Positions 13,312-41,693 of a DNA stretch of 64,000 nucleotides are shown piece by piece. The stretch covers positions 1-64,000 of the IMG/VR virus record IMGVR_UViG_3300024299_000001, one strand, 5' to 3'. Below the pieces are notes generated by a model that was not told the DNA's origin, ran no database searches, and saw only the letters and a program-made list of their open reading frames with translations. The translations under genes and the position numbers were made by a program. The DNA comes from a virus. The number at the start of each line of letters is the position of its first letter. Position 1 is the stretch's first letter.

Positions 13312-14766
13312 TTACATTACCATTCTTCGTTGTTTATATTTCGCCATCAGTGCGTCTACTTCATTCAGGCGTTCCTTTGTATAGCCAGAAAGGCCCCTGA
13401 TACGCATCATCACATACTGAAGAGCATCGTGGACATGACTGTACTTATTCTTGGCAGGCGTATCTGCAAATCTCTCTTCACCAACAACCTGCAGTCTTCT
13501 AAACTTATAGCCTCCATTAAATCCCTTTCTCAAATGGTTGCAGTCAGGATGTAAGTTGAATGCAGGCTTGCCGTCCCTGAGTGCAGTAAGATAGAATCGT
13601 ACTGCTTCAAGACGTGGATCTAGCACATTGGTATTTGCTTCTTCACACATGATACCTAAGTCGGCTAGTTCTTTAAAAACTGTTTGTTCGTCTGTTTGTG
13701 CACGTTGATTGCCGGCTGGGTCACCGATGAATGAGATATCTGTGTCGGGGTAGTGCTGCTGAATATGTGGCAGTAAGCAGGTCTCAGCAAACTGCTTAAT
13801 ACCCATGTCAAAGGAGACTACTTCAGACAGCACATTCACACCGCCACGTGTTGTTGGTTGTACAAATACTGCAGAGGGAGTTAAGCCAAAGTCAAGGCCG
13901 CACAGTAATTCCTGATCCTCAACATGCACGATATGTTCATTTAGATGAAGGGCTTCTGACCACTGTTCTTTGTAAATCGGCCTTCCATCTTCAACACTCC
14001 CGAATTGATTTGCTAGGTTGACCTTTATCCAACTGTGTGTCTTACCTTCTTTTCCTCTAGTGTAGTATCCCTCAGGTAAGTTTTGTATGTTCTCAGCCAA
14101 AGGATTGGATTCCCATTCTCTAGTTACGGGGTTCTCTATTAACCCACCAGGTTGTGTAAAAAAGGTCCAGTCCCTTGGCTTGGTAACTTCTTGCAGTTCG
14201 TAAAGCCAGTGATCATCATCCACTTGATTGGTGTCACCGATTATCCCGTACCATGACGGCCCGCCATCAATAGCTGACGGATATCTGCCGATACGAAAGT
14301 CGAGCATATCCAGGATAGCTTTCGGTAATTCTTTTATTTCGTTGAGCCAGGCCCCAGTCAACTGTGATCCCCTCACCTTCTTGACAGCTTGCGGTCTGTC
14401 AAGAGCTATGAAGACTAGGTCTGAGTCAACGATGGTCTTATCTGATAGTTTAAATTTTATATGGTGGTTGGGTGGTTGAATACCAGACCCTTTAGAAAAC
14501 TTCCCTAGATGCTCGAATAAGTCAAGCCAATCCTTGATCGTAGTAGAGAAGAGTTCTCCATATGTGTTCCTGACAGCGTACCATCTACTTTTGCGTATGC
14601 CTTGCCGGTTTGGTCGCTGCTCAGTCATCTGTGTCAAGATGCGTTCACAAGAGCCATAAGTTTTGCCGCTACCTAATGGCCCTGTGATAATACCAACACG
14701 CCCTCGATGATGAATGTAGTCACCGAGTACCTGCCCTTGCGCCTTGGTTTTCATCACAAACTTCAT
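13312..14766 (-). CDS. terL: Terminase large subunit
   Basis: Walker A is GPLGSGKT and the Walker-B-like block is LTGAWLNE. The C-terminal nuclease-type acidic blocks are GLDFG, IGDPAG and HVHDAL. Confidence 0.9.
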   Translation of the reverse strand: MKFVMKTKAQGQVLGDYIHHRGRVGIITGPLGSGKTYGSCERILTQMTEQRPNRQGIRKSRWYAVRNTYGELFSTTIKDWLDLFEHLGKFSKGSGIQPPNHHIKFKLSDKTIVDSDLVFIALDRPQAVKKVRGSQLTGAWLNEIKELPKAILDMLDFRIGRYPSAIDGGPSWYGIIGDTNQVDDDHWLYELQEVTKPRDWTFFTQPGGLIENPVTREWESNPLAENIQNLPEGYYTRGKEGKTHSWIKVNLANQFGSVEDGRPIYKEQWSEALHLNEHIVHVEDQELLCGLDFGLTPSAVFVQPTTRGGVNVLSEVVSFDMGIKQFAETCLLPHIQQHYPDTDISFIGDPAGNQRAQTDEQTVFKELADLGIMCEEANTNVLDPRLEAVRFYLTALRDGKPAFNLHPDCNHLRKGFNGGYKFRRLQVVGEERFADTPAKNKYSHVHDALQYVMMRIRGLSGYTKERLNEVDALMAKYKQRRMVM

Positions 14767-14769
14767 ATC

Positions 14770-15279
14770 TTAAACTCCACTCAAGTCTCGGATGATCACA
14801 GTGGGGAGCCCAGACTCATCTTTGCCCATCGAAATTGCACTGTTGAGTCCCTGAATGTCCTTGGTCAGCGCTTGAAACACGCCAGAGAGTGTGGCAATAT
14901 CTCTAACACTCTCTTCATCGACTGCCTCAATCGCACTGCGAGCTTTTGCCAGTAACTTAGTTTCTAAGTCAGCATATAATTCGACAAGTGCGAGTTGCTT
15001 GGCCATGTTAAACACTTGAAGTCTTTTTCGGTTTTTATCCAGGAATTGATCTGCGCGAACGGTAAAGATATCTTCACCCTCTAAAAGCTCTTCACCCTCT
15101 GTACCTTCAACCAGAGAGAAGGAGGACGAATCGTCTTCTGAAAACCACTGCTGCCATTCTTGTTCTTTGGCAATCTTCTCCATCATAGAGAGAGGTAAAC
15201 CTAGAGTATCTGCAAGATCTTTAAGAGGGACGCCTAGAATCTCGTAAGATAATCTAGGTACTTTCATATTGGTTTCCAT
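14770..15279 (-). CDS. Putative terminase small subunit (N-terminal HTH-like)
   Basis: 169 aa, the first gene of the late arm directly upstream of terL, with RBS AAGGAG. Function comes from position. Confidence 0.5.
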   Translation of the reverse strand: METNMKVPRLSYEILGVPLKDLADTLGLPLSMMEKIAKEQEWQQWFSEDDSSSFSLVEGTEGEELLEGEDIFTVRADQFLDKNRKRLQVFNMAKQLALVELYADLETKLLAKARSAIEAVDEESVRDIATLSGVFQALTKDIQGLNSAISMGKDESGLPTVIIRDLSGV

Positions 15280-15368: not shown

Positions 15369-15757
15369 CGTGGGAAAAGTGTATCATACCATATTATATA
15401 GGCGAATTTTTTCTACAGTTTTGATCTTTTTTAGTATAAGCACATCAGTTTGGCAGAGCAATACACGTATTATAGTATTTTAGTATCGGGGTTATACTTG
15501 TGTAAAAAGTGTATATTTTAGTAAAAACAGAGAAATTTTTTTGTTTAGTTTCTCGGTGTTATACTTGTGTAAAAAGTGTATATTTTAGTAAAAACAGAGA
15601 AATTTTTTTGTTGGGATTCACAGAAGAGTGGTGTAAAAAGTGTATATTTCACTGTGTACGAGAAATTTTTTTGTTGGGATTCACAGAAGAGTGGTGTAAA
15701 AAGTGTATATTCTATTGTTTACGAGAAATTTTTTTGTCGGGATTTACATAAGCAGAG
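15369..15757. repeat. Tandem array of 63-67-bp units (4 good copies plus 1 degenerate) with core GTGTAAAAAGTGTATAT ... GAGAAATTTTTTTGT
   Basis: Cores lie at 15500, 15567, 15631 and 15694, with a degenerate copy at 15372. The array is in the divergent intergenic region. Confidence 0.85.
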
Positions 15758-15786: not shown

Positions 15787-15950
15787 ATATTATATATTTA
15801 TTTTATTTTAAAATATTTTTAAATAAATATTATATTATATATTAAATTTTATTAAAAATATATAAAAATTTATTTAATTTTTTTATTTACAAATTTATTT
15901 TTTTATTATATAATATATATATTAAATAAATAATAATTATTTATTTAATA
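15787..15950. other. 164-nt tract composed of A/T apart from a single C (candidate DNA unwinding element or UP region)
   Basis: Direct reading: only C15890 interrupts the A/T run. Confidence 0.8.
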
Positions 15951-15955
15951 GATCT

Positions 15956-15984
15956 TTGACATAATATAAAAGCTTTTATATGAG
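15956..15984 (+). promoter_or_regulatory. Candidate early promoter: perfect -35 TTGACA, 17-nt spacer, weak -10 TATGAG
   Basis: TTGACA lies at 15956..15961, immediately after the AT tract. The -10 lacks the final T. Confidence 0.3.
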
Positions 15985-16381: not shown

Positions 16382-16708
16382 ATGGCCAAAGCAAAAGAAC
16401 AAAGCGTACAGTTGACTAACACTACAGAGCTGAAAAGCTGGACCAAACCTGAACTTGTAACTGCAGTAATTGAGTATGAAGACTTGCTCCTTGCACTTGA
16501 GAGTAAAATCTCAAGTGTGAAGGTGCCTGTAACAGGGCGCAAAGAACAAGTACTGAAAATCTTGAAGTCAGCTGGACACATAAGCGTCTCAGCTATTGCG
16601 ACGCGCATTGGCATCAGCCAACGCAATGTGTCTTCGCAGATGACATACCTCCGCAAGGACGGTCATGCAATCGCGACCGACTCGCTCGGTCGTAAATTTC
16701 TTGAGTAA
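16382..16708 (+). CDS. Winged-helix DNA-binding protein, paralog 1 (SSQMTYLRKDG family)
   Basis: 108 aa with RBS AAGGAG. The C-terminal 55 aa are near-identical in pattern to the 18233..18562 product. Confidence 0.7.
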   Translation: MAKAKEQSVQLTNTTELKSWTKPELVTAVIEYEDLLLALESKISSVKVPVTGRKEQVLKILKSAGHISVSAIATRIGISQRNVSSQMTYLRKDGHAIATDSLGRKFLE

Positions 16709-16734
16709 TTAACTGATGTCTTCTAGCCTTCTAT

Positions 16735-16786
16735 ATGCGCTGCTCAATAACGAGCAGCGCAACCCTTAACAAGGAGAATGACTATG
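16735..16786 (+). promoter_or_regulatory. Intergenic module copy 1: 9-bp GC hairpin (GCGCTGCTC-aataac-GAGCAGCGC) plus AACCCTTAACAAGGAG RBS plus start
   Basis: This is a nearly identical 52-nt block found three times. The hairpin lies at 16737..16760. Confidence 0.8.
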
Positions 16787-16999
16787 GCTATTGTTTATGT
16801 AGTAATGCTTGACGTAAAGTATGAAGGTTCAACACTCAGAAATTTGTTTAGCAATGAAAACGCAGCACGCAAGTACTGCGCGGCTAATGCCAACGACGTC
16901 GAGTATGATGACGTGAGCTTCTCAATTCACGAGATGACTGTGATTGACGAAGTAAATGTTACCGAGGCTGATGACAAGTATGATCATTACGACTACTAA
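16784..16999 (+). CDS. Early hypothetical protein (acidic C-terminus)
   Basis: I chose the second ATG of ATGACTATG as the start, because the first is only 1 nt from the RBS. Confidence 0.55.
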   Translation: MAIVYVVMLDVKYEGSTLRNLFSNENAARKYCAANANDVEYDDVSFSIHEMTVIDEVNVTEADDKYDHYDY

Positions 17000-17006
17000 C
17001 CTTAAC

Positions 17007-17058
17007 ATGCGCTGCTCAATAACGAGCAGCGCAACCCTTAACAAGGAGGATGATTATG
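17007..17058 (+). promoter_or_regulatory. Intergenic hairpin+RBS module copy 2
   Basis: The hairpin lies at 17009..17032 and has the same sequence as copy 1. Confidence 0.8.
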
Positions 17059-17241
17059 ACTAACCCTAACCGATCTAAAGTTCTCAATGCTGTTCAAACA
17101 TCAATCAAATCAAACGGTTATTACCGTAATGATATGATTGCCAAACAACTCGGTATCCCTAAGCGTGAGGTAAGCAAGATGCTTACTTACCTTAGATGCG
17201 ATAACGGCCACGACTTCACGCGGTATAGAATGAACCGCTAA
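17056..17241 (+). CDS. Short winged-helix-like protein, divergent paralog (KMLTYLRCDNG)
   Basis: 61 aa. The pattern IAKQLGIPKREVSKMLTYLR parallels IATRIGISQRNVSSQMTYLR. Confidence 0.5.
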   Translation: MTNPNRSKVLNAVQTSIKSNGYYRNDMIAKQLGIPKREVSKMLTYLRCDNGHDFTRYRMNR

Positions 17242-17249
17242 CCTTTAAC

Positions 17250-17301
17250 ATGCGCTGCTCAATAACGAGCAGCGCAACCCTTAACAAGGAGAATGACTAT
17301 G
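17250..17301 (+). promoter_or_regulatory. Intergenic hairpin+RBS module copy 3
   Basis: The hairpin lies at 17252..17275. Confidence 0.8.
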
Positions 17302-17490
17302 TCTAAACGTGTTAACATTTCAATGCCTGAAGAATTATATGCAGACGTTAAGAAATATAATCTTAATACTTCTAAAGTATGTCAAAAAGCTTTAGAGACT
17401 GCAATACGATTTGAGAAAGGTAAACGCCGACACCGTCAAAGCATGATTGATAATGCTCATCACATTATCAAAGCTTTACAGCGTGCTTAA
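17299..17490 (+). CDS. Ribbon-helix-helix (CopG/Arc-like) small DNA-binding protein
   Basis: KRVNISMPEELYADVKKY..NTSKVCQKALE fits the RHH strand-helix-helix pattern. Confidence 0.45.
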   Translation: MSKRVNISMPEELYADVKKYNLNTSKVCQKALETAIRFEKGKRRHRQSMIDNAHHIIKALQRA

Positions 17491-17573
17491 AACTCAATGC
17501 CTTAACCATCCGACGCGTCTGGGTGATGTAAAACTTGGCGCACTAACTCTAACCCTTAACAAGGAGGATGATT

Positions 17574-17915
17574 ATGACTGAAACATTATTTACATGTATG
17601 ACACTGGCTGAAGCATTAACTAAAGAAGCTGACGCAGTAAGAAAAACTGAAGACGACATGATGTCTTATGTCGAATGTTACAACGGCCTCGAGCGTATAC
17701 ACCACGATCTGTATACACATGCTGAACTCGATGATCTTAGCGAGACGCTTGAAGCGAACGGCACATGTGACATAAGCATGGACCTTGTACGAATAATGAA
17801 CATATGTCTTGACGGCTTCGGTAAATCTGACGTAGCAAATACACTACGACTACCGATTAGCAACAAGATAATGCAACTCGTACACTTTCTTCATTATCTG
17901 CACAACATGAGTTAA
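17574..17915 (+). CDS. Early hypothetical protein
   Basis: 113 aa. It is preceded by the RBS half of the module (AACCCTTAACAAGGAGG) without the hairpin. Confidence 0.55.
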   Translation: MTETLFTCMTLAEALTKEADAVRKTEDDMMSYVECYNGLERIHHDLYTHAELDDLSETLEANGTCDISMDLVRIMNICLDGFGKSDVANTLRLPISNKIMQLVHFLHYLHNMS

Positions 17916-17930
17916 CCACTAACAAACACC

Positions 17931-17986
17931 AATGCCTCATTGCTTATGATTTACTATCATAGGCGGTGAGGCATTGATGATAGTAA
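17931..17986 (+). promoter_or_regulatory. Two interleaved inverted repeats in A-B-A'-B' order (pseudoknot topology)
   Basis: A is AATGCCTCA (17931-39) and A' is TGAGGCATT (17967-75). B is TTACTATCAT (17951-60) and B' is ATGATAGTAA (17977-86). Confidence 0.7.
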
Positions 17987-18120
17987 GCCCGGCCCAGTGG
18001 GAGAGCGCGGCCAAGTATCAACCAGTACAGAAGATCACGGTCCAGCATCAGCTCACCATCGTCCCAATTTACTATCACCCGGCCCCGCTGGAGAGCTCGG
18101 CCAAGCGCGATACCCAGTCC

Positions 18121-18170
18121 CACACCAATTGCACCCGGCTATTTACTTCCCCGTGCTTTGGTGATATAAT
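18121..18170 (+). promoter_or_regulatory. Sigma70-type promoter cassette P1: TTTACT-17 nt-TGaTATAAT with upstream CACCAATT box
   Basis: The -35 is at 18142-47 and the -10 at 18165-70, with extended TG at 18162-63. Confidence 0.8.
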
Positions 18171-18232
18171 TATATTATAAAGAGTGAGGGAATAATCCTT
18201 CATTTAATAAATACCAAGCAAGGAGGTCCAAC

Positions 18233-18562
18233 ATGGCCAAAGAATTGATGAGTATGACCAAAGAAGAATTGGTGGCAATGATTGAAGCACAGTCAGTAGA
18301 GATCAACAAAGTGAAGGATGCAGCTGGTGGCCGGAAACTTCAGGTATTGAAGATACTTCAGACTGGAGACCACACCACAGTGAAAGCCATCGCTGCAAGA
18401 ATCGGTATCTCAGACAGGAATGTCTCATCTCAAATGACGTACCTCCGCAAGGACGGATATGCCATCGCAACAGACAGTCTTGGCCGGAAGTTTCTTGAAT
18501 CCACAGGTCAGGTGCATGAATCAGCTGGAGCCAAGGTTATAACCAGAAAGAAAGCAGTATAA
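18233..18562 (+). CDS. Winged-helix DNA-binding protein, paralog 2
   Basis: 109 aa with RBS AAGGAGG. It contains VKAIAARIGISDRNVSSQMTYLRKDGYAIATDSLGRKFLE. Confidence 0.7.
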   Translation: MAKELMSMTKEELVAMIEAQSVEINKVKDAAGGRKLQVLKILQTGDHTTVKAIAARIGISDRNVSSQMTYLRKDGYAIATDSLGRKFLESTGQVHESAGAKVITRKKAV

Positions 18563-18620: not shown

Positions 18621-18749
18621 ATGGTTGATTATTATGATGAGTACAGCGACGAAGAGTATGAGGATCTTGACATTGAATTCTTTGTACCCGACTCGCCAGG
18701 TAGACGGTGTAACTGTGAAGACGCACCGTGTTGTGGATGCAATCAATAA
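18621..18749 (+). CDS. Small acidic, Cys-rich protein (42 aa; hand-called)
   Basis: AGGAGGAACTCAGT-ATG has the same RBS and spacer as the next gene. The product is MVDYYDEYSDEEYEDL...CNCEDAPCCGCNQ. It is below the ORF-track size cut-off. Confidence 0.45.
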   Translation: MVDYYDEYSDEEYEDLDIEFFVPDSPGRRCNCEDAPCCGCNQ

Positions 18750-18764
18750 CGGGAGGAACTCAGT

Positions 18765-18953
18765 ATGGCCAAGAAGAGAGTCTTTAAAGAGCATATCGTC
18801 ACGGCTGTGATCATCAATCACCAGCTGTATGTGATGGACTTTGTTGAGCAGTATGAATCAGTAGAACATGCGATCTTTGCAAAGTTCGGCATCGACGCTG
18901 ACAATGAAAATTATCACGTACTGTGGAGTGGTCCACGATACCACATAGGTTAA
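18765..18953 (+). CDS. Hypothetical protein
   Basis: 62 aa with RBS GGGAGGAACTCAGT. Confidence 0.55.
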   Translation: MAKKRVFKEHIVTAVIINHQLYVMDFVEQYESVEHAIFAKFGIDADNENYHVLWSGPRYHIG

Positions 18954-18957
18954 CAGT

Positions 18958-18996
18958 AATGCCCGGGCATCTCAATGTGTCCGGGCATTTTTATTT
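18958..18996 (+). terminator. Rho-independent terminator
   Basis: AATGCCCGG ... CCGGGCATT is a 9-bp stem followed by TTTTATTT. Confidence 0.75.
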
Positions 18997-19050
18997 ACTA
19001 TCATCGGCGGGACTGGAGAGCTCGACCAAATAAGATCTGGATTCTAGAAA

Positions 19051-19779: not shown

Positions 19780-20121
19780 ATGAGAGACACATTAACACTA
19801 GAGGCTATCCGTGAAGACTTAACCAGTGTGCGCAAGCTCATCAGAGTGCGCAAGCCAGAAACAAAAGAGTATGACTTAGACTACTACAACGCAAGAGACT
19901 TACTTATTAGGTTGAACAACAACTTATACACACTACCTATCTCTGGTTGGCTAGAGAATGAAGGCACACTAGATATAGACATGGCACTAATTGATCTAAT
20001 CTACTTCATCAACAACCACAAGCTCAAACAACTCAATGAAGCACTTTATCAAACTATTAATCTGGTTGACGCGATCAGCTACAGATGCGCAACACGATTT
20101 GACTCACTGACCGAGGTATAA
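19780..20121 (+). CDS. Hypothetical protein
   Basis: 113 aa with RBS AAGGAG. Confidence 0.6.
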   Translation: MRDTLTLEAIREDLTSVRKLIRVRKPETKEYDLDYYNARDLLIRLNNNLYTLPISGWLENEGTLDIDMALIDLIYFINNHKLKQLNEALYQTINLVDAISYRCATRFDSLTEV

Positions 20122-20494: not shown

Positions 20495-20713
20495 ATGATT
20501 AGCAACGCTGAATTATCACAAAGGCAAACTCTGCGTGACCGTGGCGAAAGCCCTGACAAGTTAGACAAGGAGACGACTGAGGAGTTTCTGCAACGAGGTG
20601 GTAGGATTGCAAAGATTCCGAGGGGTATGAGTGGTGAGACATTTAACGCGTTCCAATGCACGAAGGAGGCACATAAGGATGGCACAGTCAACGATCCAAA
20701 AGAAACAAAATAA
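20495..20713 (+). CDS. Hypothetical small protein
   Basis: 72 aa with RBS AAGGAGG. Confidence 0.55.
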   Translation: MISNAELSQRQTLRDRGESPDKLDKETTEEFLQRGGRIAKIPRGMSGETFNAFQCTKEAHKDGTVNDPKETK

Positions 20714-20917: not shown

Positions 20918-23302
20918 ATGGCAACTACAGTACTACGTAAAGACGATCCACATTTACTAACACTCACACAACTCAACTTTAAGAAAATTCCCAACTCCCT
21001 TAAGCAGCATCCCTTCTGGATACTATGGCAACCTCGGCATCAGCACAACTCTACAAAGATACTTAAGACCCCATTCGGTGGCAAAGCATGGCAGAAACAG
21101 ATACAGTCCTGGGATGACATTGTGCCGCACTATGGCAAGCAACAAAAGAACATACCGACTGGACTGGGTTTCGTGTTCACCAAGGACCATCCATTTGTGT
21201 GCATCGACATTGACGACGTCACACCGACCAACTCAAGGATGCAAAAAGAACTTGACTCATACACTGAGCGATCTCCTTCTCTCTTGGGTACGCATGTCTG
21301 GGTGCAGCTCTTCAGCATCAAGGACAAAGCGAAGTTAGAATCCTACTTCGGCACTAAACGATTTAATAAGACACACAAACGTGATTTGTTTATATCATCT
21401 GGCTATTGTACTATCACTGGGGGACATGTCAAGACTACCCCGACTGATGTGCGCATTTACTCCTTTGAGGACTTAGTTGACATACTAGGCCAGTACTTCA
21501 ATCAAAAGATTGTCTCCCTGGAAGAGCACCGTCAAGAAGCAGTTCAAACAAGCAAGGTACTATTCCCCCGCACCAAGCGACAAGCACCAATCTCTGCAGA
21601 ACAAGCAAGACTCCTACTACGTAAAATCGACGTCCGCACCTTGACATCTGACATATTCGACAACTTGACTCATCCTACAAGACTAGCGATCCTAAACCCA
21701 GATGAGACAGAAGAAGCGCGTGAACCATGGATGACAATCTGTCAAGCAATTCATCATAACTTTGGTGGTGAGCCAGATGGTCTTCTACTTCTACATGAGT
21801 GGAGTAAGAAGGGTAACAAGTATGACAAAGAGGCACTCATGTCGGTGTACGAGTCATTCTCTACGGCGCCAGAGTTTCTTAATCAACAAAAACCAATAAC
21901 AATCGGTACACTCATTGCGCTGGTCAAAGCACAGAGACCGGACTTCAACGATCTATCTCCGAAGGGAAAGCCTGTCTCCACAATTCAAAACTTAGAGGCG
22001 TACTTCAAGTTCTACAAGTATCATATGGCGTTTAACATCGTCACACGTGAGGTAGACATAGCGATGCCTAAAGCCATAGTAACAACTCTGGCCGACAAGA
22101 CTATTAGAATCTTTGATATAGACAGAGCATATCGTATCATCGCGTCTGAGTTATTGAAGCTCGGTTTCGCGAATAAGAACTTTATAAATCTAAGAGAGTC
22201 AATTCTAGACTATGCTAAAGTAAACTCATATAATCCAATAGAAAACTACTTTAATAAGATATATGCTGAATATGATGAAGCTCAAGATCCATTAGAGGAT
22301 CTTATGAACACTATCACGTTCGACAATACGATACGGACTAAGAATGCTCAAGCAGCGGTCAAGGTGTTCTTTAAGAAGTGGCTGACACAAGTTGTCGCGG
22401 CGGCGAATACCTCACAAACACACTCGACCAGGATATTCAACAACCTGATGATCTTGATCGGTGAACAGGGTGTAGGTAAGACTAAGTGGGTTGCTTCGCT
22501 CTTTCCAAAAGAGATTCAACAATTCTGTGCAGGTAGTGGCAACTTACAGATTAACCAATTTAGAACTGACAACGTGAAGCAAGCTATTGAGTTACAGCGC
22601 ACGTTGATCTGCAACATCAATGAAGTAGACTTACTGTTCAAGGAAGGCTCGTACTCAAAGTTCAAGCAACTTCTGGATGAGACGACCAACTCGATGGTGT
22701 TACCTTATGGCAAGACTGCTGTGCAGATGACACGACGAACAGTATTTATAGGTAGCACGAACAAGCGTCACTTCTTAGTAGATCAAACAGGTAACAGAAG
22801 GATAACTCTGGTCCATGTTGACGACATGAACTCAGAACATACTATGGACCTAGGGCAACTTTGGGCACATGCTGTGCACTGGTACCGTGAAGAAAAATGC
22901 TGGTGGCTTGACCCTAAGAATCCAGAAGATAAGGTGGCAATTGAGGTGCAAAACAAACTAAATATGCAAGGTATGTACATTGGTGATGACGGCTTGATGG
23001 AAGACTTAGATCACTACTTCAAGCTAGACGCTAAGTCAATCCACTACAAGAAAGTAACATTTAAAGACATACGAATGCTGATGCCAAGTCTACATGGTGT
23101 AAAGCTCAACTCTAGGGCATTCAATGTAGCAAAGATGACTTTTCATAACTGGCTAAATCAAACTAAGTTTGGCGAAGTTATGAAGAAGAAAAGTGGCGTT
23201 CGTGCCCAGCAATTCTATTTAGTTCCCCCTATCCGCGAAAAGAAACAAGCTGCATCATTCAAGCAAGCTGCACTACTAGATGAACTAGAATCTCTCGCCT
23301 AG
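20918..23302 (+). CDS. Bifunctional prim-pol / VirE-D5-type primase-helicase
   Basis: The N-terminal GLGFVFTKDHPFVCIDIDD is a prim-pol DxD block. The middle PWMTICQAIHHNFGG is PriCT-like. The P-loop is LIGEQGVGKT. Confidence 0.85.
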   Translation: MATTVLRKDDPHLLTLTQLNFKKIPNSLKQHPFWILWQPRHQHNSTKILKTPFGGKAWQKQIQSWDDIVPHYGKQQKNIPTGLGFVFTKDHPFVCIDIDDVTPTNSRMQKELDSYTERSPSLLGTHVWVQLFSIKDKAKLESYFGTKRFNKTHKRDLFISSGYCTITGGHVKTTPTDVRIYSFEDLVDILGQYFNQKIVSLEEHRQEAVQTSKVLFPRTKRQAPISAEQARLLLRKIDVRTLTSDIFDNLTHPTRLAILNPDETEEAREPWMTICQAIHHNFGGEPDGLLLLHEWSKKGNKYDKEALMSVYESFSTAPEFLNQQKPITIGTLIALVKAQRPDFNDLSPKGKPVSTIQNLEAYFKFYKYHMAFNIVTREVDIAMPKAIVTTLADKTIRIFDIDRAYRIIASELLKLGFANKNFINLRESILDYAKVNSYNPIENYFNKIYAEYDEAQDPLEDLMNTITFDNTIRTKNAQAAVKVFFKKWLTQVVAAANTSQTHSTRIFNNLMILIGEQGVGKTKWVASLFPKEIQQFCAGSGNLQINQFRTDNVKQAIELQRTLICNINEVDLLFKEGSYSKFKQLLDETTNSMVLPYGKTAVQMTRRTVFIGSTNKRHFLVDQTGNRRITLVHVDDMNSEHTMDLGQLWAHAVHWYREEKCWWLDPKNPEDKVAIEVQNKLNMQGMYIGDDGLMEDLDHYFKLDAKSIHYKKVTFKDIRMLMPSLHGVKLNSRAFNVAKMTFHNWLNQTKFGEVMKKKSGVRAQQFYLVPPIREKKQAASFKQAALLDELESLA

Positions 23303-25324: not shown

Positions 25325-25467
25325 TGAATACTGCTTTATGGCAAAAATGGCTAAACGAAGATGTAGATGATCTTAAAGAGGCTTTACTATACTACGGTAT
25401 AACTGGAATCCTGGCTCGCTTTGAAGATTGGTTAAAGTTTAACAAACACTTAATAAAGGAGGACTAA
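25324..25467 (+). CDS. Small protein (47 aa; hand-called), paralog of 33503..33655
   Basis: MNTALWQKWLNEDVDDLKEALLYYGITGILARFEDWLKFN aligns with MDESLYDKWVEEEIEDMQTALLHRGVDGLFFEFERWVKEN. It has TAATG overlaps at both ends. Confidence 0.5.
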   Translation: MNTALWQKWLNEDVDDLKEALLYYGITGILARFEDWLKFNKHLIKED

Positions 25468-26660
25468 TGCACAGTAAGTATTCACCCTCACAACTACCTA
25501 GGATCGTAACATGTCCAGGAAGTGTGATTAGTACAAAGGACGTATCAAAAGAGACTTCTTCATACGCTGAGGAAGGTACAATGCTGCATGCTGTAGTGGA
25601 AGAATGTTTGACTCTGAATGAGCACACAATACCAGAGGCCACGAAACTGAACTTCAACATCGCTGATGATGAGAGCAAGGAACTTGTTGAGGCAGTCCAA
25701 GAAGTACTAGACTGGGTTGTATCTCTACGACTGAAGTACGCTGACTATGAAGATGCGTATGAAGTAGTAGAGCAGCGAGTGTACATGTCACCGTACATCA
25801 AGGCAACAGGTTGTCAGATGCTCAATGATGTACACGGCACACTTGACTACTCCTTCATCATACCATCTGCAGGAGTTGTGTACATCGTAGACTGGAAATT
25901 TGGTAAAGGAGTAGAGGTGTGGCCAGACTCAGAGCAACTATACGCCTATGCTCTTGGCAAGTTAGCGTCCGTGAAGTTCGAAGTCAAGAAAGTATTTCTG
26001 GTCATTGGACAACCAAGATTATATTCAGGTGAACTATTCAAGATTGTTGAAACTACACCTGAAGCACTTAAGTCTTGGTTAGTGTCATCCCTGGTTCCTG
26101 CACTGAACAACAGCATGTCTAAGCACCCAATCTATAAGCCAACAGAGAAGGCTTGTATGTGGTGCGCGATAAAACGTACATGTAAGTATCGTAAAGACAT
26201 GGCGATGCAAGCTGCAGCAGATGTATTTAAGATTCACGCAAAGCTGCCTGACAAAACAGACGATGAAGAGTTATCAGACTTCTTATTCAAGCTACCTGAC
26301 TTAAAGAAGTACATTAGCGACATTGAGTTATATGCTATGAACATCTTAAGAGCAGGTCGTGACCTTCCTAAATGGAAACTTGTTGCAGGACGCAGCATTC
26401 GCAAATGGAAGGATGAAAAAGAAGCTAAGTTATTTTATGCAAACTTGGAAGAGTATGATGCCGAAGACCTTACTATCACCAAGTTCAAGAGTCCTACACA
26501 GATTGAGAAACTGGTAGGGAAGAAAAATGTTACAGAAGAAATGCTGGCGTTAGTGGTTAAGCCACCTGGCAAGCCAACGCTAGTACGTGAGACTGATAAA
26601 CGCCCCGCACTCGAGTTTGAGACAGCAGAAGATAAGTTCAAATCATATGTGGAAGATTAA
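25467..26660 (+). CDS. PD-(D/E)XK nuclease, DUF2800/Cas4-like (C-terminal Cys cluster)
   Basis: VYIVDWKFGKG is the D..K core and CMWCAIKRTCKY is the cysteine cluster. It sits in the typical neighbourhood with a DUF2815 SSB and a PolA. Confidence 0.75.
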   Translation: MHSKYSPSQLPRIVTCPGSVISTKDVSKETSSYAEEGTMLHAVVEECLTLNEHTIPEATKLNFNIADDESKELVEAVQEVLDWVVSLRLKYADYEDAYEVVEQRVYMSPYIKATGCQMLNDVHGTLDYSFIIPSAGVVYIVDWKFGKGVEVWPDSEQLYAYALGKLASVKFEVKKVFLVIGQPRLYSGELFKIVETTPEALKSWLVSSLVPALNNSMSKHPIYKPTEKACMWCAIKRTCKYRKDMAMQAAADVFKIHAKLPDKTDDEELSDFLFKLPDLKKYISDIELYAMNILRAGRDLPKWKLVAGRSIRKWKDEKEAKLFYANLEEYDAEDLTITKFKSPTQIEKLVGKKNVTEEMLALVVKPPGKPTLVRETDKRPALEFETAEDKFKSYVED

Positions 26661-27078: not shown

Positions 27079-27591
27079 ATGGCTGAAAAAATCAACAGAA
27101 GACAGCAGGTAATCGATGCAATCACAACAGGTGAAATGACAAAGAAAGAGATCGCAGAGCAGATCGGTGTCAAAGAATCAGGCATCAGTTCACAGATGAC
27201 GTACCTCAGATGGATGGGATACTTCATTATCTTTGATGACGACAAAAAACTGTCCTTCACTGATGAAGCAGGATTCGCTGACTGGGAGGCTGATAAAAAA
27301 GCCAACCGTAAAACCAAATCTACCTCAACAAAGACACCAGCTGAACAGCACGCCACGTTGACCAAGACCATCGCCAACCAGGAAAAAGCAATGGCTAAGT
27401 TTGTTGACAAACAGACCTTGCTTGCTGACGAAGAAGATGCAGATGAAGATACTGTCAATGAAGTGGATGCGAACATCACACTCCTGGATATCAAGATCAG
27501 GCGCAATGAAGCAAAACTCGACAACATTGATCTGAGTGATGAACCTGACGCTGAGCCAGAACCTGACGACGAAGACGAAGAACTTCTTTAA
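27079..27591 (+). CDS. Winged-helix protein, paralog 3, with Lys-rich middle and acidic C-terminal tail
   Basis: 170 aa. KKEIAEQIGVKESGISSQMTYLRWMGY is the shared winged-helix block. The C-terminus is DEPDAEPEPDDEDEELL. Confidence 0.65.
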   Translation: MAEKINRRQQVIDAITTGEMTKKEIAEQIGVKESGISSQMTYLRWMGYFIIFDDDKKLSFTDEAGFADWEADKKANRKTKSTSTKTPAEQHATLTKTIANQEKAMAKFVDKQTLLADEEDADEDTVNEVDANITLLDIKIRRNEAKLDNIDLSDEPDAEPEPDDEDEELL

Positions 27592-29524: not shown

Positions 29525-29556
29525 AATTTAACCACGAATATACACTTTTTACGCTT

Positions 29557-41229: not shown

Positions 41230-41450
41230 GGTATAATTACCTCGCCTCCTGGTTTAGAGTGTTTATGTTTGAAGAGCTTCTTAAGAGTTTCAGTTCGCTC
41301 AACACAAGTATCAACTGTAACTTTACTGTTTAACCTCACCTCTATTTTATCCACGTCTTTATTAAGCTTGATCATCCAACTTTTGACAAAGAACCCAGAT
41401 ATTACAAATAGAAATGAAATCGCGCCCCATAGCATTTGTTCTTTCGTCAT
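41226..41450 (-). CDS. Small TM protein (holin or spanin candidate)
   Basis: 74 aa containing WGAISFLFVISGFFV. Confidence 0.5.
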   Translation of the reverse strand: MTKEQMLWGAISFLFVISGFFVKSWMIKLNKDVDKIEVRLNSKVTVDTCVERTETLKKLFKHKHSKPGGEVIIP

Positions 41451-41693
41451 ATAAAACTCCTTAATAAGTCTCTGTACTCAACGATAAGCCACCGAGCTGA
41501 TAAACCAAATAGCCGGTATACCCAGGGATTGTTATTAGTATTCATACAGTACTAGTACACTATGTGAGGTTTCTTTGCACTGATAAAATGAACGAAAAAT
41601 ATAATAATGCAACTCCTGACTAAAACAACACACCCATTCTCATCTTGGAGCTTCATACCGTCTGTTGTTCCACCGCTTATACCAACCATTGTG

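Follow-up and report, generated by a model that had tools for sequence, protein, structure and literature searches.

The stretch of DNA analysed here, referred to as the window, comprises the first 64 kb of a 131,274-bp phage record of IMG/VR (IMGVR_UViG_3300024299_000001) that carries direct terminal repeats and has a GC content of about 40%. Four open reading frames (ORFs) of the window, named here A, B, C and D, code for small proteins with a winged helix-turn-helix (wHTH) domain (Table 1), which a first-pass annotation of this DNA had presented as four paralogs with a common recognition-helix and wing block. In the first early operon A comes second, after an ORF of 61 amino acids (aa), which corrects an earlier account, whereas C is the first gene of a transcription unit that also includes ORFs of 42 and 62 aa. 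For B, the start at 17056 proposed in the first-pass annotation is favoured over that given by the ORF finder (17050) and corresponds to the second ATG of a repeated ribosome-binding site (RBS) module; the same choice of ATG is the most likely one for the genes at 16784, 17299 and 17574.

When the whole 131,274-bp genome was searched with C, exactly four places were recovered, namely C itself, A (E 3.7e-28), D (E 1.4e-8) and B (E 0.012). A profile of 34 metagenomic homologues of A and C detected D (E 4.4e-11) and B (E 3.5e-7) and matched no further ORF in the 131-kb genome, so that both searches returned the four ORFs with the common block and these only. Profile-profile comparisons, carried out with hhalign in the case of B, gave a probability of 98% (E 1.3e-13) between the A/C and D families and 95% (E 2e-8) between the A/C family and B. 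The resemblance of A and C over their C-terminal parts, pointed out earlier, was also evident, with 71% identity overall and 81% over the last 57 residues of A. Judging from these matches, the four proteins are homologous. The earlier picture of four copies in an early region stands as regards this homology but not as regards one simple paralog set in one region, because D forms a single-copy orthologous group within the replication module, A and C belong to different sublineages and B is an orphan.

The two conserved types differ in their layout. The 48 closest relatives of the A/C type are metagenomic proteins of 85-143 aa, composed of an amphipathic N-terminal helix, the wHTH and, in part of them, a basic C-terminal tail. 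In an alignment of 34 homologues a G-R-K motif is invariant and the recognition helix and wing are nearly so (RNVSSQ(L/M)TYLRKDG.AIATDS.GRKF), the invariant or near-invariant columns being R34, K35, R62, N63, S65, S66, Q67, Y70, R72 and K73, plus T80, D81, S82, G84 and K86 in the wing. A tail ending in ...K(V/T)I(T/L)RK(K)A is present in about 20 of the 34 homologues and is wholly missing in lineages L009 and L012. A comparison of C-terminal tails as docking elements found none common to other proteins of the genome. For the D type, 44 homologues (169-206 aa) were retrieved, built of the same four parts and ending in ...(D/E)EELL; the Lys-rich region and acidic tail ascribed to D in the first-pass annotation are both there, the linker being rich in Lys, Ser and Thr and the protein ending in ...DEDEELL. 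B matched only itself among 5.8 billion proteins. The recognition helix, (V/I)SSQMTYLR, is essentially one and the same in all four proteins of the window, and the oligomerisation or effector parts differ. Among the metagenomic relatives there are also tandem in-frame fusions with two wHTH copies (P0108, P0106 and P0123, 200-277 aa), some of which combine a degenerate copy with an intact one.

An exhaustive profile search of 1.84 billion representatives at 50% identity put the size of the family at 196 members at E <= 1e-10 and 360 at E <= 1e-3. Neither C and D (by tblastn) nor the 15-20 kb region (by megablast) found a match in 50,697 phage records, and the nearest cultured phages according to TerL, such as Pseudoalteromonas phage vB_Pun_Y3, have the packaging and head module alone in common with this genome. 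In a scan of 185,579 cellular species genomes the sole carrier was a phage contig binned in a Bacteroidetes metagenome-assembled genome. The family is confined to uncultured phages of 38-131 kb; four related phage records (38-63 kb, three of them 88-100% complete) carry one D-type and one to three A/C-type genes each. It has no dedicated entry in Pfam, NCBIfam or PHROG, and a literature search on it returned nothing. It is a new, phage-only wHTH family of a familiar functional kind, whose sole unusual feature is the presence of several paralogs with one common recognition helix.

The assignment of the common block to a winged-helix DNA-binding fold was borne out by AlphaFold2 models of C, built from the homologue alignment, and of D. 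The predicted local distance difference test (pLDDT) score of C was 79 overall and 83-93 over the wHTH, with a disordered tail, and that of D had a mean of 85 and reached 92-93 over the wHTH, with linker and acidic tail disordered. According to DSSP, C contains helices at residues 34-43, 50-57 and 61-73, a beta residue at 47 and strands at 78-80 and 86-88, and D contains helices at 7-17, 22-29 and 33-45 and strands at 49-52 and 58-61; both models follow the H1-b1-H2-H3-b2-b3 topology with a recognition helix and a beta-hairpin wing. The Foldseek comparison suggested in the first-pass annotation, run here for C and D, gave DNA-binding repressor wHTH domains as neighbours. The best matches of C were bacterial (ArsR-like Mb0332, NiaR, NolR, CggR, HlyU, MarR/MepR and BirA), and it was superposed on BirA (3rkx, 6ndl, 3v8j) and NiaR (9ebr) with root-mean-square deviations of 1.3-1.6 Å over 54-60 residues and a Foldseek probability of 1.00. 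The best full-length match of D was PadR, with and without operator DNA (5x11, 5y8t), although it was weak (E 3e-3, template modelling score 0.32), and the Pfam PadR model detected nothing in D at E <= 10.

Profile libraries placed the A/C type narrowly within generic families. A and C passed the cut-offs of HTH_11 (PF08279; 26.2 and 25.5 bits, cut-off 25) and HTH_24 (PF13412; 24.3 and 24.0 bits, cut-off 21.9), and B and D had no match to these two models. The cut-offs of ArsR/SmtB were missed (PF01022, HTH_5, with 17.8 for C and 13.0 for D against 22; ArsR NF033788 with 26.1, 23.5, 20.3 and 11.7 against 55), as were those of MarR (PF01047 with 18.4 for A and 12.4 for C against 24.6; PF12802 with 17.6 for A and 19.6 for C against 27). 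The best solved structure in a profile search of the PDB was HlyU (E 1e-4), and the match to the MarR-type PHROG 1687 was weak (E 6e-5). In PHROG and PADLOC the matched portion is generic wHTH sequence within MarR-, 'Ren-like'- and Csa3-type profiles; a defence-system assignment through PADLOC (Csa3/CasR/CARF) was rejected, as only the C-terminal wHTH end was matched (E 5e-6 to 1e-3) and there is no CARF domain.

Table 1. Position of the wHTH genes and of associated features in the window
Feature	Position	Strand	Description
A	16382..16708	+	108 aa; N-terminal amphipathic helix and wHTH, without C-terminal tail
B	17056..17241	+	61 aa; wHTH alone; hairpin and RBS module upstream
C	18233..18562	+	109 aa; helix 10-30, wHTH 34-88, disordered tail with KVITRKKAV end; first behind P1
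D	27079..27591	+	170 aa; wHTH 7-61, helix 63-75, linker, hairpin 87-149, acidic tail; first behind P5
Candidate promoter of the first early operon (holds A and B)	15886..15914	+	TTTACA-17-TATAAT; 11/12 matches
P1	18142..18170	+	TTTACT-17-TATAAT with TG extended -10; C starts at 18233
P5	26986..27014	+	TTTACT-N14-TGCTATTAT, without upstream CACCAATT box; D starts at 27079
Intrinsic terminator closing the C unit	18958..18989	+	13-bp stem followed by a T-run
Degenerate first box copy	17950..18014	+	ACTATCAT part within the strong hairpin found where the first operon ends
Bipartite box	18067..18106	+	ATTTACTATCAC-CCGGCCCCG-CTGGAGAGCTCGGCCAA; between first operon and P1, just upstream of CACCAATT
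Second bipartite box, near-identical	18993..19031	+	Directly after the C-unit terminator
CACCAATT box	18123..18130	+	Upstream of P1 -35; also at P2 (19677), P4 (23303) and P6 (29559)
GTAAAAAGTGTATAT 15-mer	15502..15710	+	Four exact copies in the divergent control region before terS; second candidate operator class
GTAAAAAGTGTATAT, fifth exact copy, inverted	29538..29552	-	Just upstream of the P6 CACCAATT box
TerL	13312-14766	-	Packaging gene, with structural genes on this strand
terS-like	14770-15279	-	Packaging gene, with structural genes on this strand
Divergent non-coding region	~840 bp, past the terS-like gene		Separates minus-strand genes from plus-strand early genes
Genes after the divergent region		+	Small early genes, primase-helicase, nuclease, ThyX, MazG
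D5/VapE-type primase-helicase	20918-23302	+	
DUF2800/Cas4-like nuclease	25467-26660	+	ThyX and MazG also on the plus strand

A genome-wide scan with a regular expression revealed six strong sigma70-type promoters of the form TTTAC[TA]-N14-TGnTAT[AT]AT, all on the plus strand and between 18142 and 29578. The placing of two paralogs as first genes behind strong promoters held for C after P1 and D after P5, both of which have a near-consensus extended -10. The P1 cassette was also found before the C-type gene in the relatives L016, L020 and L021-23. For the first early operon, a second candidate promoter is marked by TTGACA at 15956.

The C unit is bracketed by two copies of a candidate operator, a 38-nt bipartite box, ATTTACTATCAyC-(GC-rich)-CTGGAGAGCTCGrCCAA. 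The order of box, CACCAATT, promoter, gene, terminator and box is complete in L020 and L021, where the box after the terminator reads GGAGAG(C/T)(T/G)CGA, and its upstream part is present in L016 and L022-23. In L010/G002, four or five such boxes lie directly after the single A/C-type gene, and in L009 and L012, whose recognition helix starts with TKN and not xRN, different GC-rich direct repeats occupy the same place. The hairpin at 17916-17990, of about 21 bp, contains the first TTTACTATCAT copy; the RNA fold of 17916-18125 has a z-score of -4.6, and a simple hairpin fits the arms better than a pseudoknot.

The distance from the start of the CACCAATT box to the -35 downstream of it is 19 nt in the window and 29 nt, one helical turn more, in L021 (at about 290); in L012 (at about 7700) the box is inverted and closely precedes the -35. 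Such a 10-bp shift and inversion is behaviour typical of a protein site. The spacer of the CACCAATT-box promoters also holds the inverted half-site TTTGGTG. As for the GTAAAAAGTGTATAT 15-mer, there are five exact copies in all and none elsewhere in the 131 kb, and its core AAAGTGTAT occurs seven times in the window against 1.5 expected. In the 63-kb phage G002 the core TATACACTTT is found in inverted pairs that often abut an RBS (14480-14570, 18852-18940, 23974 and 41240-41512), with a AAACGTAT partner about 33 nt away. The GTAAAAAGTGTATAT/TATACACTTT element could be either a regulator site or a phage-specific promoter element.

The position of the genes is conserved as well. In L009, L016 and L018, A/C-type genes come first on the plus strand after the divergent terS region, which is preceded by a module with SU10-like adaptor, capsid, P22-type portal and TerL. 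Downstream of the C-type gene, L021-23 and the window alike have a non-coding island that spans about 870 bp and separates it from a handful of small genes, behind which comes the primase. In all relatives examined, D is flanked by the DUF2800 nuclease and ThyX within the replication module, and genes for dUTPase/MazG, an Enc34-type single-stranded DNA-binding protein and PolA lie downstream of the locus.

Identity between A and C over their conserved block is 81% at the protein level and only 65% at the DNA level, with pN 0.18 and pS 0.86 (saturated), values according to which their divergence is old and has been under strong purifying selection. In the maximum-likelihood tree the copies of L009 (three), L012 (two) and L016 (two) group by genome, whereas A joins P0012, P0014 and other tailed proteins in one clade and C goes with P0002/P0003. 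A sister relationship of A and C was rejected by the approximately unbiased (AU) test with p 0.019, for a group named after the tree had been seen. That A and C stem from a recent duplication, or were homogenised by gene conversion, is ruled out by the DNA identity, the saturated synonymous sites and the AU test. As a member of A's clade occupies the 'C position' behind a CACCAATT promoter in L020, A looks like an allele of the C locus that came from a related phage and has since lost its tail. In L016 the first copy is likewise tail-less and the second tailed, but the two are sisters, which A and C of the window are not, so the tail-less plus tailed arrangement may have arisen twice independently. 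The genes at 17574-17915, at the end of A's operon, and 19780-20121, the first behind P2, are distant paralogs too (BLASTP E 4e-5, 31% identity over 68 aa); with A and C taken into account, the pair suggests that a second early module was acquired from a related phage. An assembly-dimer artefact of the 131-kb record was rejected, because no motif or wHTH gene recurs at an offset of +65 kb.

Among the neighbouring genes, the 42-aa ORF directly after C (18621-18749, plus strand) encodes an extremely acidic product (DYYDEYSDEEYEDLDIEFF) with a Cys cluster (CNCEDAPCCGCNQ) at its end, and it is not kept downstream of the C-type gene in L020 or L021. The gene at 17299-17490 (plus strand, 63-65 aa) matches the CcdA antitoxin/ribbon-helix-helix family of Pfam (34 bits, cut-off 22.4, E 3.8e-8), and this orphan antitoxin-like gene, part of the first early operon, may counteract a toxin of the host. 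The 72-aa product of 20495-20713 (plus strand), just upstream of P3 and the primase, resembles the SutA RNA polymerase-binding domain PF20661 below its cut-off (27.1 bits against 29.3, E 2.7e-6) and may be a small early RNA polymerase binder. Between 16735 and 17576, one hairpin, GCGCTGCTCAATAACGAGCAGCGC, recurs in three identical copies ahead of consecutive early genes, with the same RBS module after each copy, and a fourth RBS module there has no hairpin; these modules may be RNA-processing or cassette-shuffling elements.

From the fold, the residue-specific conservation of helix 3 and wing, the dedicated promoters and the conserved boxes beside the genes, A-D are taken to be sequence-specific phage wHTH transcription regulators that would time the phage's early programme and be autoregulated. 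This reading is given about an even chance, its DNA targets being predicted; that the four proteins bind DNA at all is considered very probable. A would be made from the first promoter after infection and C from P1, and both would bind as dimers, held together by the N-terminal helix, through the recognition helix RNVSSQ(M/L)TYLRK and the wing ATDSLGRKF. Their predicted sites are the boxes bracketing the C unit (ATTTACTATCAyC...CTGGAGAGCTCG), and the CACCAATT boxes of P1, P2, P4 and P6 are additional possible ones. Binding there would autoregulate P1 and time the delayed-early and replication promoters, and at sites common to both, A, which has no tail, could act as an antagonist of the tailed C or occupy them before it. 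D, with an almost identical recognition helix (ISSQMTYLRW), would be a PadR-like dimeric regulator made alongside the replication genes and, more speculatively, may act at the TATACACTTT(TTAC) boxes before terS and P6 (predicted D site TATACACTTTTTAC).

In a more elaborate and distinctly doubtful version of this reading, the paralogs would form a competition-based timer on common operators, in which the tail-less A comes first and is followed by the basic-tailed C and the acidic-tailed, PadR-like D. The apparently independent origin of the tail-less and tailed pair in the window and in L016 suggests selection for such a decoy/effector pair. If true, the pair would take the phage out of early transcription and into replication and late transcription, or gate origin firing.

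Several observations weigh against a regulatory role. The family-level matches are to generic wHTH domains and close to threshold, and a strong dedicated promoter on a monocistronic gene is odd for a low-copy repressor and would be more fitting for an abundant DNA-binding protein. Across the genome the short core GRAGAGNYCG shows no enrichment, with four copies found against four expected, and only the long bipartite box is specific; moreover, the first ACTATCAT copy falls in an RNA or terminator-like hairpin. An attempt to match proteins to sites by the covariation of helix (R- or K-type) and box in five genomes was discarded, as it is confounded with phylogeny. Finally, the position of the boxes between the gene and an origin-like AT-rich island suits an origin-binding role equally.

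In that role, the main alternative but one considered rather unlikely, the A/C type would be an origin binder in the manner of lambda O or the iteron initiators, its basic tail would recruit the primase-helicase, and D would be a replication accessory. The boxes are indeed direct repeats in one orientation, located between the wHTH gene and an AT-rich island, rich in sites for integration host factor, upstream of the primase. This box-beside-island layout is found in the window, L010/G002, L016 and L021; direct-repeat boxes and an AT-rich island occur next to the gene in all of L020-23, and L022 has three tandem boxes with a spacing of about 32 bp. The conserved order from the C-type gene to the primase and the fixed synteny of D within the replication genes point in the same direction. 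However, the PHROG matches to O-like initiators (phrog_391, phrog_678) are below significance (E 0.06-0.3), initiators seldom occur as two or three paralogs per genome, and primase-helicases of this family often load themselves without a separate origin binder. As to the recruiting tail, tail-less forms exist, L009 and L012 lacking any tail.

It is less probable still that the proteins are host-directed takeover or exclusion factors of a 'Ren-like' kind, acting on host DNA or in superinfection exclusion or escape from abortive infection. The first-expressed genes of lytic phages are often host-takeover genes, the CcdA-like and SutA-like neighbours look host-directed, and 22 of 27 D-type proteins match PHROG 16568, 'Ren-like exclusion protein' (best E 1.4e-10). 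This match is nevertheless confined to the wHTH part (profile positions 69-111 of 129), leaving the helical hairpin and acidic tail of D outside, and the function of the PHROG comes from annotation only. In addition, the recognition helix is near-invariant over phages of 38-50% GC, with presumably different hosts, which favours a phage-borne target, and the conserved boxes adjoin the genes of the phages themselves.

Abundant, histone-like architectural proteins in the manner of phi29 p6 or SPO1 TF1, with little sequence specificity, would agree with a near-consensus promoter and strong RBS on a monocistronic gene for a small DNA-binding protein, and several copies could serve dosage; this is very unlikely, since the extreme residue-specific conservation of helix and wing is typical of base-specific readers and the nearest folds are specific repressors. 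A winged helix serving as a protein-protein or RNA module without DNA binding is the least credible alternative and highly improbable, for although some such domains have protein or RNA partners, the residues kept here at precisely the helix 3 and wing positions that touch DNA in homologous repressors are basic and polar, and all close structural matches are DNA-binding regulators.

As transcription regulators, the proteins would belong to an otherwise ordinary phage gene kind, the small wHTH regulator, but the family provides a marker, and a likely control element, for a widespread clade of uncultured phages. Once identified, its operators would give a first handle on gene timing in a phage group without a cultured member and could also yield compact, orthogonal repressor/operator pairs.

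In agreement with the first-pass annotation, which had not assigned the genes to a known system, no named system was found to fit them, although partial likenesses are evident. By way of general comparison, phage phi29 p4, T4 MotA and the Aca proteins are small early phage DNA-binding regulators encoded near strong promoters and operator-like boxes; no sigma-appropriation partner was identified here. An Aca-type autorepressor was rejected specifically, since Aca genes lie downstream of acr, whereas C is first in its unit and the unit is monocistronic in L020 and L021-23. With lambda O and the plasmid iteron initiators there is in common a wHTH protein beside direct-repeat arrays and an AT-rich, origin-like region, but A and C are much smaller, occur as several paralogs and have the repeats outside the gene. 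The ArsR/SmtB proteins, such as Vibrio HlyU (PDB 3jth, 5znx, 4k2e), are small dimeric proteins of about 100 aa, similar in size to A and C, and provide the best profile match over helices 1-3 and the same wHTH topology. The A/C type, in contrast, is devoid of the alpha1/alpha5 dimer core and of a metal or redox site, and has one long N-terminal helix before the wHTH. As regards BirA and NiaR, HTH_11 and HTH_24 are generic domain families and not functional ones, and the proteins described here have no ligand-binding or enzymatic domain. The nearest counterpart of D, by a weak match, is PadR of B. subtilis; the two are similar in overall architecture, about 170 aa with the wHTH at the N-terminus and a helical dimerisation region at the C-terminal side, and D has in addition the disordered Lys/Ser/Thr-rich linker and the conserved acidic ...EELL tail.

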